Below, piece by piece: positions 37,091-41,245 of a stretch of 64,000 nucleotides of DNA (within the stretch, counting starts at the first letter, position 1; the number at the start of each line of letters is the position of its first letter). Source of the DNA: an uncultured Pseudomonadota bacterium (GTDB lineage: Bacteria; Babelota; Babeliae; Babelales; Vermiphilaceae); NCBI GenBank assembly GCA_964440325.1, contig CAYTRW010000003.1, forward strand, positions 2,924 through 66,923. The letters are read 5' to 3'. The position numbers and the translations under genes are program-made. The notes beneath the pieces were generated by a model. That model had not been told where the DNA came from. It searched no databases and was given only the letters and a program-made list of their open reading frames with translations.

Positions 37091-37933
37091 ATGATGCATA
37101 CAAATACACGATTATTATTAAGCCTTTTGTATATCGGAATGTCAGTTGCTCCATTTGCACGTGCTGCGCAAGAAATTCCAGGTTCTTTGCACGATGAACA
37201 AGTTGAACTTGATCATCAAGAGTATGAATATGTTGATGGTGTAAAATGTCCATGCAATAAGCCAAAGCCAAAAAGAAAACTTCTTATTTCTGCTGCTCCC
37301 CGTTCTGGAGAAGAGTTGGTCAAAACAGTTGTTGATGAGCTTGTAAAGCCAACATGGGTTGCCGTTGATGAAGCGGATACTGATTTGTCAGAAGATGTAT
37401 TGCATAAATTAACACGTGATAATAAAGCTGCAGTAACACATATTTGTGCAACTGATAAAACAGTGCGTCTTGCGCAAGAACAACAATTAAATGTTTTATA
37501 TGTGGTTAAAGATCCACGCGATTATGTGTATGCAACCGCACAATGGATAAAAAATGTTGCACATAAAGATGGTGTATCTGCAAAATCGATACATGACCTT
37601 GTTGTTGATTTGATTAAAGATGTTGATTTTGTATATCGTTCATATACTCCGTGGATGAGCTATAAAAATACGCTTGTTGTTCGATCTGAAAGCTTGGCTG
37701 GTAAAGAAGAAGAACAAGTGGAAGAAATCTTAAAACTTGCGCGTCATCTTGGTGTTCCTGCAGATAGACAAAAAGCTCATCGTATTGCATTGCTTTGTCA
37801 AAAAGAAGAAGAAACATATAAAAGCAGTGGTACATGGAAACAAGAATTTACACAAGAACATAAAGAACTATTTAAAGATGTAGCAGGGCAGTTGCTTATT
37901 GATTTAGGATACGAAAAAGATCTTAACTGGTAA
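37091..37933 (+). CDS. Secreted PAPS-dependent sulfotransferase-domain protein
   Basis: AAGGAG RBS 7 nt before ATG 37091. Signal peptide MMHTNTRLLLSLLYIGMSVAPFARA. 5'-PSB-like LLISAAPRSGEELV, 3'-PB-like VVKDPRDYVYATAQW, and the C-terminal GTWKQEFTQEHKELFKDVAGQLLIDLGY typical of sulfotransferase C-termini. Confidence 0.6.
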   Translation: MMHTNTRLLLSLLYIGMSVAPFARAAQEIPGSLHDEQVELDHQEYEYVDGVKCPCNKPKPKRKLLISAAPRSGEELVKTVVDELVKPTWVAVDEADTDLSEDVLHKLTRDNKAAVTHICATDKTVRLAQEQQLNVLYVVKDPRDYVYATAQWIKNVAHKDGVSAKSIHDLVVDLIKDVDFVYRSYTPWMSYKNTLVVRSESLAGKEEEQVEEILKLARHLGVPADRQKAHRIALLCQKEEETYKSSGTWKQEFTQEHKELFKDVAGQLLIDLGYEKDLNW

Positions 37934-37959
37934 TTGTTATTGCACAGAAACTGTTAAAA

Positions 37960-37990
37960 AAAGAAGGGCTAAAAGCCCTTCTTTTTTTAT
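37960..37990. terminator. Bidirectional intrinsic terminator between the sulfotransferase gene and the convergent GT2 gene
   Basis: AAAAAAGAAGGGC-TAAAA-GCCCTTCTTTTTTT. Confidence 0.75.
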
Positions 37991-37995
37991 GGTTT

Positions 37996-38736
37996 TTAAT
38001 TATTGTTATTGTTATAAAAAAAAGAAGGGAATCGTATTTTAAAGAGTGCTTTTAGCATATAAAATCCTGCAGATAGTTTTAATTTGCTGCCTGCTTGATC
38101 ATACCAGGTTGTTGGTATTTCTTTTATAACAAAGTGTTCCTTCTTGCACAAATATAAAAGTTCAACATCAAAAGCCCATTGCGTAACGGTTAGCTGAGGC
38201 GCAATATGTTTGATACAGCGTTGCGTAAAAAGCTTTGCTCCGCACTGATAATCATAATAAGACATGCCAAAAAGAAGGCGAATAAGTGATTCAAAAATAA
38301 GCTTGCTTCCCAATCGCTTGATAAGAGGTCGTGGTGGATAAACGTGAGCTTCAGGCATATATCTGCTTGCAATAATTCCATCAAAACCATTTATATTGTT
38401 GATAAGATCATAATAATAAAGTGGTTCTGTAGCCATATCTGCATCAACAAATCCAATTAAGTCAAAAGTATTTTTTTTGATAGCTTGTAAAAAACCATAT
38501 TTTACGGCAAGTCCTTTCCCTGATTCTTTAAGATTAAACATAAAGATTGTGTCAGGATATTTTTTTTGTAAGCGCGTTATTACAAATTCAGTGTTGTCGG
38601 TACATCCATTTAAAACAACGAAAAAAGTTACGTTTACATGGTCTGATTTTTTTTGAAAAAAAGAACAATATGCAGACAACATTTTTTCTATGCGATTTTC
38701 TTCATTATGCGCGGGAATTATAAGTGCAACGTTCAT
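37996..38736 (-). CDS. Glycosyltransferase family 2 (dolichyl-/polyprenyl-phosphate sugar transferase-like)
   Basis: MNVALIIPAHNEENRIEKML..., DxD-like VDADMA, GT-A fold length. Confidence 0.8.
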   Translation of the reverse strand: MNVALIIPAHNEENRIEKMLSAYCSFFQKKSDHVNVTFFVVLNGCTDNTEFVITRLQKKYPDTIFMFNLKESGKGLAVKYGFLQAIKKNTFDLIGFVDADMATEPLYYYDLINNINGFDGIIASRYMPEAHVYPPRPLIKRLGSKLIFESLIRLLFGMSYYDYQCGAKLFTQRCIKHIAPQLTVTQWAFDVELLYLCKKEHFVIKEIPTTWYDQAGSKLKLSAGFYMLKALFKIRFPSFFYNNNNN

Positions 38737-40258: not shown

Positions 40259-41245
40259 ATGTATTCAAGAAAAATATTATCTGTTTTTTGCGTACTGTTT
40301 ACGTTTCTTTTTATACATGTTGGTGCGCTAGATAATAAAAAAGTTCTTGAGGGCCCATTTCTTCCTGAAAATACACAGCTTCAGTTTGATATTGATGAGA
40401 CGATTGTTATAAAAAATCGTTTTCAACTGTGGATTGATTTGATAAAAGATTTACATTATAGGGTTGATTTATTGTTCCCATTATTATTTACCAATGCGGA
40501 TCCCAATTATATTAATTGTGCAATTGGGCATCCATGGAACTTATATTATCAAGCGATAAATAGGCCTGAGTTGCGTCCATATGTTGACCAATTTATGAAG
40601 AGAGTTGCGTCTTCTCATCATCTGATTCCTGGGGTTATAGATATTTTGGTTCGTTTAAAACAAAAAGGATATTCCATTGTGTATGCGACCAATAAGGATC
40701 GTGTATCATATGATTATACGGTAAATACTTTAAAAGAGCCGTTTTCTTCTTTACCCGATGCTGTTTTGGTTTATTTTAGAAAAACAACTGATCCTGTTAT
40801 GAATGCAATTAAACACTTTATTGATACGGCAGGAGAGCAAGAAAAAGAGTTTGCTGATATGATGCGTGATGTATATGACCAAAAGGATACAACGCTTATT
40901 AAGCATTCTTTTGTCATGAAGCCATCTCAAGAATATGTATTAAAACAGCGAGAGATTGCAGGAGATAAAAAAATTATCTTTTTTGATGACCTTGCCAAAA
41001 ATGTTGAAGCGATGTCTTTTGATCAAAATAGTATTGGGATCCAGGTATTTGCTTCAGCAGAATCTATTCTCAACCCCCTTTTCCAGTTGGGAATTTTTTC
41101 TCATGATGATCCAAGTGATGAGGCATTATATATTCGATTGAGCGAGTATCATAATTCCGGTATACTCACAAAGGTTGGCAAATGGTGGCTTGCATTTAAA
41201 CGGTGGTTATGGCCACCAGTCTCTGTGCGCATGCCTGTGCATTAA
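40259..41245 (+). CDS. Secreted HAD-superfamily hydrolase-like protein
   Basis: Signal peptide. HAD motif I FDIDETIVIK (DxDxT) and an FFDDLAKNVEA (DD) motif IV-like segment. Confidence 0.5.
   Translation: MYSRKILSVFCVLFTFLFIHVGALDNKKVLEGPFLPENTQLQFDIDETIVIKNRFQLWIDLIKDLHYRVDLLFPLLFTNADPNYINCAIGHPWNLYYQAINRPELRPYVDQFMKRVASSHHLIPGVIDILVRLKQKGYSIVYATNKDRVSYDYTVNTLKEPFSSLPDAVLVYFRKTTDPVMNAIKHFIDTAGEQEKEFADMMRDVYDQKDTTLIKHSFVMKPSQEYVLKQREIAGDKKIIFFDDLAKNVEAMSFDQNSIGIQVFASAESILNPLFQLGIFSHDDPSDEALYIRLSEYHNSGILTKVGKWWLAFKRWLWPPVSVRMPVH

Follow-up and report, generated by a model that had tools for sequence, protein, structure and literature searches.

A signal-bearing sulfotransferase-fold protein with a remodelled cofactor site in a Vermiphilaceae genome

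The DNA analysed here, referred to as the window, is a 64,000-nt stretch of assembly GCA_964440325.1 (contig CAYTRW010000003.1, positions 2,924-66,923, forward strand; GTDB lineage Babelota; Babelales; Vermiphilaceae) with a GC content of about 36%. On its plus strand, an open reading frame (ORF) at 37091-37933 opens with ATGATG, ends in a stop codon at 37931-37933 and is preceded by the ribosome-binding site (RBS) AAGGAG at 37079-37084, 6 nt 5' of the start. An earlier, sequence-only reading had recognised this frame and its strong RBS, both of which are present, and had described the product as an exported sulfotransferase of the type that uses 3'-phosphoadenosine 5'-phosphosulfate (PAPS). 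Its observations hold, whereas its interpretation stands for the protein family, the signal peptide and the neighbouring glycosyltransferase, and needs correction for the cofactor motifs, the supposed paradox of an exported PAPS enzyme and the linkage to that glycosyltransferase. The analysis points to a rare clade of sulfotransferase-fold proteins, predicted to be exported, in which the cofactor site has been rebuilt around a retained catalytic histidine. The protein (hereafter the query) has the following parts.

37091-37165, plus strand: predicted Sec/signal peptidase I (SPase I)-type signal peptide, residues 1-25, made up of MMHTNTR, LLLSLLYIGMSVAPF and ARA
37166-37276, plus strand: predicted disordered linker, residues 26-62 (37 residues), with an acidic stretch (…DEQVELDHQEYEYVDG), then CPC and the basic NKPKPKRK
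37277-37930, plus strand: predicted SULT-type sulfotransferase-fold domain, residues 63-280, from PF00685, AlphaFold2 (AF2) and Foldseek
37298-37318, plus strand: equivalent of the 5'-phosphosulfate-binding (PSB) loop, PRSGEEL (PRSG being residues 70-73), family PKSGTHL
37439-37441, plus strand: His117, equivalent of the SULT catalytic-base His, aligned with the His of THL in SULT7A1
37508-37534, plus strand: equivalent of the 3'-phosphate motif, KDPRDYVYA, residues 140-148, family RDPRDQxxS
37814-37840, plus strand: equivalent of region IV and the GxxGxxK loop, TYKSSGTWK, family TFRxGxIGxWK
37883-37930, plus strand: C-terminal family tail AGQLLIDLGYEKDLNW, the last helix of the fold, an exact match to the family consensus

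Residues 63-280 are predicted to adopt the sulfotransferase fold. Pfam PF00685 (Sulfotransfer_1) matches residues 62-260 (profile positions 2-242 of 255) at E 6.7e-6, its score of 26.1 bits exceeding the gathering threshold of 22, and this hidden Markov model (HMM) search, which the sequence-only reading had itself proposed, confirms the sulfotransferase family. The TPST-type profiles (Pfam Sulfotransfer_3/_2) give no match even at E<=1, so that membership of the TPST/RaxST group was rejected, the Arg of PRSG being the sole resemblance. A word-seeded search recovered 85 homologues, nearly all of which carry PF00685, and Babeliales proteins are present among the named sulfotransferase homologues. 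The AF2 model, built from a 78-sequence alignment, reaches a mean predicted local distance difference test score (pLDDT) of 85.7 and a predicted template modelling score (pTM) of 0.77, and it is confident over residues 62-280, with most of the domain above 90. Its best Foldseek matches in the PDB are SULT1C1, SULT2A1, SULT7A1, SULT4A1 and Teg12/14, with E-values of 2.7e-7 to 1e-5 for the cytosolic SULTs, and the best 50 are all sulfotransferases at a probability of 1.00, with TM-scores of 0.5-0.6 when normalised on all 280 residues, 60 disordered ones included. A kinship to giant-virus or phage sulfotransferases was also considered and rejected, the matches being weak, confined to the fold and at 9-14% identity.

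A profile of the family to which the query belongs aligns motif by motif with mouse SULT7A1 (5x2b) at E 1e-25, pairing PKSGTH with PKSGTH, sHl with THL, RDPRDqvvS with RNPKDTAVS and FreGkiGsW with FRKGVVGDW. Searched without its tail against 1.84 billion representatives, the family profile yields 8,889 matches at E<=1e-3, of which 1,711 reach E<=1e-30, the family representatives (about 8,900) having been clustered at 50% identity. Within the SULT superfamily, these proteins form a large branch of bacterial members that has not been characterised. The query clade itself comprises three orthologues (P0001-3) and their cluster mates at 90% identity or above, and no further members of this divergent clade appeared in the metagenome scan. 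The family spans Dependentiae, a Parachlamydiaceae metagenome-assembled genome (MAG; L017, JANWJE010000096) and many Anaerolineae/Chloroflexi, Planctomycetota and deltaproteobacterial MAGs (L023-L050). Most of its non-parasite members have no hydrophobic segment at the N-terminus, and in some of them the sulfotransferase is joined to a kinase for adenosine 5'-phosphosulfate (APS; L036, L039).

The query ends in ...LGYEKDLNW, and the tail motif of the family reads AGxLLIxLGYExDxNW. All 85 first-round homologues, the fusions of APS kinase and sulfotransferase (P0078-83) included, end in the 15-mer GQLLIDLGYEKDLNW, which made the tail look invariant. This apparent invariance was rejected, since seeding the search with 5-mers had biased which homologues were recovered, exact GQLLIDLGY occurring in 33 of the 135 new matches found with the unseeded, tail-less profile. 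The tail is thus best regarded as an ordinary family motif with no hyper-conserved signal.

The cofactor site is where the query departs from its family. Residue roles, namely those of the catalytic His and of the equivalents of the 3'-phosphate-binding Arg130...Ser138, were taken from PMC4199319, and the query was compared column by column with 75 family members from outside its clade, mapped onto SULT residues through the SULT7A1 alignment. The residues that differ are listed below.

Arg71, PSB loop: Lys in 96% of the family
Glu74, PSB loop: Thr in 87% of the family
Glu75, PSB loop: His in 76% of the family
Lys140, 3'-phosphate motif: Arg in 100% of the family
Ala148, 3'-phosphate motif: Ser in 99% of the family
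Lys244, region IV: Arg in 81% of the family
Ser246, region IV: Gly in 100% of the family; the GxxG loop is shortened here by two residues

Across the 49 columns conserved in at least 80% of the family, the query deviates at six of six cofactor positions and at 4 of the 43 others (Fisher p=1.5e-5). All three SULT motifs (5'-PSB, 3'-phosphate and region IV) are affected, while the catalytic His is conserved, both in the family (95% at the position of His117) and in all three orthologues. Region IV reads TYKSS--GTWK against TFRxGxIGxWK, retaining the second Gly, the Trp and the Lys, and GTWKQEF occupies residues 247-253. The 135 unbiased family matches almost always carry PK[SCA]GT[HN] in the PSB loop (family consensus PK[SCA]GTH), and in the 132 of them that have the 3' motif the combination R..S occurs 130 times, R..A twice and the K..A of the query never. 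The sequence-only reading had cited PRSG, KDPRDYVYA, GTWKQEF and LGY as PAPS-sulfotransferase motifs; all are present, but at every PAPS-contact position they depart from the family consensus instead of matching it, so that PAPS dependence cannot be assumed.

The gene is under purifying selection (dN/dS 0.14-0.19 overall, 0.15-0.20 for the domain alone and 0.08-0.17 for the signal peptide with the linker), and the root-to-tip distance of the query clade, 0.40 against a median of 0.39, shows that its branch is not unusually long. Together with the concentration of changes at six of six against 4 of 43 positions, these values indicate that the cofactor site was altered in a targeted manner and did not decay. 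All three basic cofactor contacts, moreover, are still basic (K to R, R to K and R to K), which, together with the retention of His117, argues that the protein can still bind an anion or nucleotide and catalyse a reaction. Arg at the position of the PSB Lys also occurs in other sulfotransferase families.

The N-terminus bears the features of a secreted protein. Cleavage is predicted at ARA|A, after residue 25 and before A26, so that the mature protein would begin with AQEIPG. The n-region MMHTNTR is positive, the h-region has 15 residues with a mean Kyte-Doolittle hydropathy of 1.95, Pro stands at -5 and Ala at -3 and -1, and the first 25 mature residues have a net charge of -8; no lipobox was found in the signal peptide. 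These features recur in the three orthologues, with ARA invariant and the +1 residue variable (A/T/E). The classical rules applied here (a positive n-region, an h-region of 7-15 residues, small residues at -3 and -1 and a mature part that starts free of positive charge) all hold for the query as they do for secretory proteins cleaved by Sec/SPase I. Because the 15-residue h-region is too short for a transmembrane (TM) helix and the charge distribution is opposite to that of an anchor with its C-terminus inside, a cleaved Sec signal is favoured, which would place the domain outside the cytoplasm. The classic signal peptide of the sequence-only reading is thus upheld by rule, from the n-region and h-region through the ARA site to the acidic mature start, and the uncleaved, cytoplasm-facing anchor that the same reading had named as its refutation is disfavoured by the charges and by the length of the h-region, although an experiment could still reveal one.

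The linker between signal and domain is predicted to be disordered (AF2 pLDDT below 50 for residues 21-42). It is specific to the query clade, as other family members lack it, and within the clade it is conserved in the three orthologues under purifying selection. Three motifs within it, DHQEYEYVDG, a CPC pair and PKPKRKL, are conserved in all three orthologues. The acidic Tyr motif DHQEYEYVDG may be comparable to tyrosine-sulfation sites such as that of PSGL-1, and PKPKRKL may be similar to the nuclear localisation signal PKKKRKV of simian virus 40.

The surroundings of the gene contain four further features.

36919-36949, plus strand: intrinsic terminator of the upstream glyA gene for serine hydroxymethyltransferase (SHMT), with a 13-bp stem and a T-run
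37013-37090, plus strand: conserved non-coding leader, with TTGCAA at 37022-37027, a 17-nt spacer, TAGGAT at 37045-37050 and the RBS at 37079-37084
37955-37989, both strands: bidirectional intrinsic terminator common to the sulfotransferase gene and the convergent GT2 gene, with a 16-bp stem between an A-run and a T-run
37996-38736, minus strand: convergent GT2 glycosyltransferase of 246 residues, without a signal peptide

The sulfotransferase gene is monocistronic, because intrinsic terminators lie on both of its sides, and the one at 36919-36949 shields it from upstream transcription. In the orthologous loci L002 and L003, whose proteins are 85% and 83% identical to the query, the 78-nt leader has 93-96% nucleotide identity, which exceeds the conservation of the coding sequence and sets in abruptly at 37013, and the promoter-like TTGCAA-17 nt-TAGGAT hexamers are invariant. 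Substitutions by codon position number 3/2/1 in the leader block against 29/13/72 in the coding part (two orthologues). The leader is in frame with the gene, and gene callers lengthen the ORF by 25-33 codons. The database version of the protein, a 313-residue ORF starting at 36992 (P0001) that would imply two hydrophobic segments, was rejected, as its start ATG is not conserved and has no RBS, the added part lacks codon-position bias and promoter-like hexamers stand upstream of 37091. The true start is therefore 37091, as the sequence-only reading had it, with 37013-37090 serving as promoter and leader rather than as coding sequence. No significant RNA structure was detected in the leader (z -0.33), and in a scan of the whole window no Rfam family, tRNA included, attained its gathering score. 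As for the adjacent SHMT, the named proteins among its best 120 matches are only "Candidatus Dependentiae" or "Candidatus Babeliales". The window thus very probably belongs to a Babeliales/Dependentiae genome, the organism being a probable parasite that lives inside protist cells.

The GT2 protein resembles polyprenyl/dolichyl-phosphate mannose synthases (archaeal Dol-P-Man synthase 5mlz, E 3.2e-6). It also neighbours the sulfotransferase gene in the orthologous locus L002, and another Babeliales locus (L021) has an analogous convergent pair, formed by a sulfotransferase and a methyltransferase-GT2. The convergence with a GT2 gene across a shared terminator, as described by the sequence-only reading, is thereby confirmed. 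The linkage is nevertheless weak, because the terminator stands between the genes and they are not co-transcribed, so that the adjacency offers at most a suggestive hint of a connection to extracytoplasmic glycosylation that depends on polyprenyl-phosphate sugars. This GT2, beyond the terminator, is the only glycan gene in the window, and searches of the window by tblastn and HMM found no canonical sulfotransferase paralogue.

Signal-like N-termini are common in this lineage. In the window, about 24-27 of 56 ORFs (about 45%) begin with a signal- or anchor-like segment. Two proteins of normally cytosolic type have such N-termini, an α/β-hydrolase/lipase-like protein at 33639-34433 on the plus strand (MIKKQLIWIVFFSIECFAARV) and a HAD-superfamily hydrolase at 40259-41245 on the plus strand (MYSRKILSVFCVLFTFLFIHVGALD). 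In the cultured Chromulinavorax destructans, another member of the Dependentiae, 44% of coding sequences have signal-like N-termini (PMC6561590), a share that the window matches; C. destructans multiplies in the cytoplasm of its host and has no complete metabolic pathways, and Dependentiae secrete many putative effectors that bear signal peptides (PMC6561590). Within the sulfotransferase family, 127 of 195 members start with an N-terminal hydrophobic stretch (median of 16 uncharged residues, mean n-region charge +1.8); the uncharged stretch reaches at least 20 residues in 33 of these 127, and the n-region is more positive than the C-terminal flank in 72 cases, the reverse holding in 28. These statistics suggest that the N-termini of the family are signal-peptide-like rather than TM-like.

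The loci of canonical relatives extend this pattern to further enzymes. Canonical family members of the Babeliales are often arranged in tandem and lie inside glycan clusters. The locus L053:1-16780 (Babeliales MAG_BO39, JARLHJ010000022) contains two sulfotransferases, six GT1s, a GT2, an RXYLT1-like protein, a UDP-glucose dehydrogenase and two GDP-mannose-dehydratase-like enzymes, and nearly every enzyme has an added signal-like N-terminus, soluble NAD(P)- and nucleotide-sugar enzymes among them. In L014, from the Dependentiae single-amplified genome AM-311-O15 (JBHPCA010000001), the order is GT2-GT6-GT2-PAPS synthase-sulfotransferase-GT32/TcdA-like. The PAPS synthase of this locus (L014:4227-5906) is bifunctional, with PUA_2, ATP-sulfurylase and APS_kinase domains (E 5e-84 / 3e-58), and lies directly upstream of a signal-bearing sulfotransferase; it has itself an added signal-like N-terminus, starting with MRQFKNIVLLFFIFIFYGNSFG. 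A similar N-terminus is present in 47 of its 120 closest homologues (P0352-P0471), one of which is named Parachlamydia sp., whereas canonical cytosolic PAPS synthases of free-living bacteria (Rhodothermales and others) begin with MPTTTLIEPHGG and have no signal-like segment. In the Dependentiae lineage the enzyme that makes the donor can thus, as far as N-terminal sequences tell, bear the same targeting signal as the transferase. The sequence-only reading had regarded an exported PAPS enzyme as a paradox, PAPS being a cytosolic cofactor; with about 45% of window ORFs signal-like, and the PAPS synthase and UDP-glucose dehydrogenase of relatives likewise, that objection loses much of its weight.

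Three other observations were made in these loci. L014:473-7860 encodes glycosyltransferases typical of eukaryotes, a GT6 (ABO/alpha-1,3-Gal-transferase family, Pfam E 4.5e-47) and a GT32/TcdA-TcdB-like protein with DXD, all with signal-like N-termini. In L051:1208-7895 (Babeliales MFD03323.bin.2.33), seven ORFs of similar size (279-296 residues) with no Pfam match lie beside an ankyrin-repeat protein and upstream of a canonical family sulfotransferase, and they may represent an expanded family of unknown secreted proteins. A kinase beside the sulfotransferases of L052 was considered as a cryptic APS kinase and rejected, as it belongs to the CPT family and its APS_kinase match (E 0.006) falls under the cut-off.

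Taken at a probability of roughly one half, the query would be a Sec-exported sulfotransferase derivative that still binds an anion and acts outside the bacterial cytoplasm, with a glycan as the probable acceptor and a donor supplied by the host or by an exported PAPS synthase. The protein would be translocated by Sec and cleaved after Ala25, and it would act in the periplasm, at the cell surface or, after release, in the host cytoplasm, the compartment in which Dependentiae replicate. Its remodelled pocket would still bind an anionic nucleotide donor, either PAPS or a related compound such as APS, and sulfate would be transferred with His117 as the base. The donor may come from the host, which is plausible because the periplasm of an ATP-importing parasite in the host cytoplasm must already contain small host nucleotides, or from an exported PAPS synthase such as that found beside canonical relatives. 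The likeliest class of acceptor would be a glycan, of either the bacterial envelope or the host, because the canonical relatives sit in glycosyltransferase clusters.

Several points weigh against this proposal, and those on the PSB loop, on the orthologue P0003 and on the 3'-phosphate site also speak against a canonical use of PAPS. The PSB loop contains two Glu, and we know of no active PAPS sulfotransferase with an acidic residue at the position of the PSB Thr. The orthologue P0003 reads HHSGEEL, with HH for PR (CCC CGT to CAT CAC, a real change), which suggests weak constraint at this point of the loop. The changes Ser148 to Ala and Gly246 to Ser and the 2-residue deletion all fall on the 3'-phosphate site, and no PAPS synthase or APS kinase was found in the window by tblastn or HMM. 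Furthermore, the glycan acceptor is drawn from the relatives, the query's own neighbour being a single convergent and separately transcribed GT2; the signal-peptide call is rule-based rather than experimental, and release from the cell would call for a route across the outer membrane.

The same features lend themselves to a second explanation, less likely than the first but a serious rival to it, in which the query is an exported pseudo-sulfotransferase. It would still have the fold, and perhaps a groove for the acceptor or for sulfate, but would neither bind PAPS nor transfer sulfate, serving instead, in the periplasm or in the host, in binding or as a scaffold, for instance for glycans that are sulfated or anionic. 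SULT4A1, a SULT-fold protein with no demonstrated activity, provides a precedent. The replacement of all six conserved cofactor contacts, the two Glu in the phosphate loop, the shortened 3'-phosphate loop and the HHSGEE of P0003 would all fit a loss of catalysis, as would a gene that stands alone, with neither a PAPS synthase nor a canonical paralogue within the window. However, the catalytic His has been retained although about 70% of residues changed along the branch, and the conservative exchange of three basic contacts would be unlikely without selection for an anionic ligand. The dN/dS of 0.15-0.20 shows that the protein has a function, and it fits an enzyme and a pseudoenzyme alike.

The relatives' loci leave two options: either the whole pathway is extracytoplasmic or all of these N-termini are tethers that face the cytoplasm, and the charge statistics favour the former. 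A broader, speculative and rather unlikely extension of the extracytoplasmic option is that Dependentiae and some amoeba-associated Chlamydiae run a whole nucleotide-dependent pathway of glycan sulfation outside their cytoplasm, the query being a neofunctionalised secreted effector directed at the host. Such a pathway would comprise the signal-bearing PAPS synthase, UDP-glucose dehydrogenase, GDP-mannose-dehydratase-like enzymes, glycosyltransferases and sulfotransferases, and its site would be either the host cytosol or a periplasm that receives ATP and nucleotides from the host. The donor pocket of the query would then have been re-engineered, possibly for APS or another donor, and the linker with EYEY and PKPKRKL would make it an effector.

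The opposite option, which we consider improbable, makes the query a conventional enzyme held by an uncleaved tether (N-out/C-in or monotopic) to the inner membrane on its cytoplasmic side. With PAPS from the bacterium itself, the enzyme would there sulfate a lipid-linked glycan that is exported afterwards. A common tether would be economical, given that the GT1/GT2 enzymes, nucleotide-sugar enzymes and PAPS synthase of the relatives are normally cytoplasmic and share this type of N-terminus, and the 33 of 127 family N-termini with an uncharged stretch of 20 residues or more would suit it. Opposed to this are the 15-residue h-region of the query, its Pro at -5, the A-x-A at -3/-1, the positive n-region and the net charge of -8 over the next 25 residues; under the positive-inside rule the charges of the query oppose a C-in orientation, and in the family the n-region is the more positive side by 72 to 28.

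Arg in the PSB loop is a feature of TPST-type enzymes. Least probable is a secreted effector that acts on host proteins, for example in the manner of a tyrosine sulfotransferase with EYEY as an auto- or pseudo-substrate and PKPKRKL as a host-targeting signal: the conserved DHQEYEYVDG and PKPKRKL in a linker under purifying selection and the many signal-peptide-bearing putative effectors secreted by Dependentiae (PMC6561590) would agree with it, but Sulfotransfer_3/2 gives no match even at E<=1, the family is SULT-like and associated with glycan clusters, and the motif resemblances are short and found in a Lys/Glu-rich proteome.

Among known systems, the cytosolic SULTs (mouse SULT7A1 5x2b, human SULT1C1 3bfx and SULT2A1) share the fold and the catalytic His with the query, yet they are only about 15% identical to it and act in the cytosol, whereas the query is predicted to be exported and has altered residues in the PSB loop, the 3'-phosphate motif and region IV. 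Members of the tail family in Babeliales, Anaerolineae and other groups, annotated only as "sulfotransferase domain-containing protein", have 28-31% identity in the domain and an identical tail, and the signal-like N-terminus is common to the query and most AT-rich members of the Dependentiae type. Canonical members keep PK[SCA]GT[HN], RDPRDQxxS and TFRxGxIGxWK and often lie in tandem within glycosyltransferase clusters; the query clade, in contrast, has altered motifs and the extra 37-residue linker, and its gene is solitary beside one convergent GT2.

The glycopeptide-antibiotic sulfotransferases Teg12, Teg14 and StaL are bacterial members of this fold class, with weak matches to the family profile (Teg14 E 1e-5, StaL 3.6e-5), and the rhizobial Nod-factor enzyme NoeE matches in its C-terminal region at E 0.016, with 13.9 bits against a model cut-off of 500. 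Unlike the query, these four are cytoplasmic, have canonical PAPS sites and lack a signal peptide. The type II sulfotransferases of the Golgi (such as the heparan sulfate enzyme HS 3-OST, 1t8t) offer an analogous topology, with a hydrophobic signal at the N-terminus and a non-cytosolic catalytic domain that acts on glycans, but their profile match is weak (E 3.6e-3) and their sequence kinship to the query is far more distant than that of the cytosolic SULTs. In the Golgi, PAPS is brought into the lumen by a transporter, and the catalytic base of these enzymes is Glu rather than His.

The family and the fold are already known, and what is new is a rare clade that has gained a linker and whose cofactor site has been rebuilt. 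The literature searched contained no paper that combines Dependentiae with a sulfotransferase, and none in which an intracellular bacterium secretes a sulfotransferase as an effector. The more striking lead comes from related loci outside the window, with their signal-bearing PAPS synthases and nucleotide-sugar enzymes. Sulfation is normally bound to the compartment that makes or imports PAPS, and these loci raise the question of whether energy parasites use the periplasm or the host cytosol for biosynthesis that depends on ATP and nucleotides. Exported and with a donor site rebuilt rather than degraded, the query would be either a clean natural case of a sulfotransferase becoming a pseudoenzyme or, among Dependentiae, whose biochemistry has hardly been studied by experiment, the first bacterial sulfotransferase-type protein to be exported as an effector or as an enzyme that modifies the envelope. 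Biosynthesis outside the cytoplasm, if true, would change the view of the Dependentiae secretome, at about 44% of genes, and of the ways in which these bacteria remodel their own surface or that of the host.

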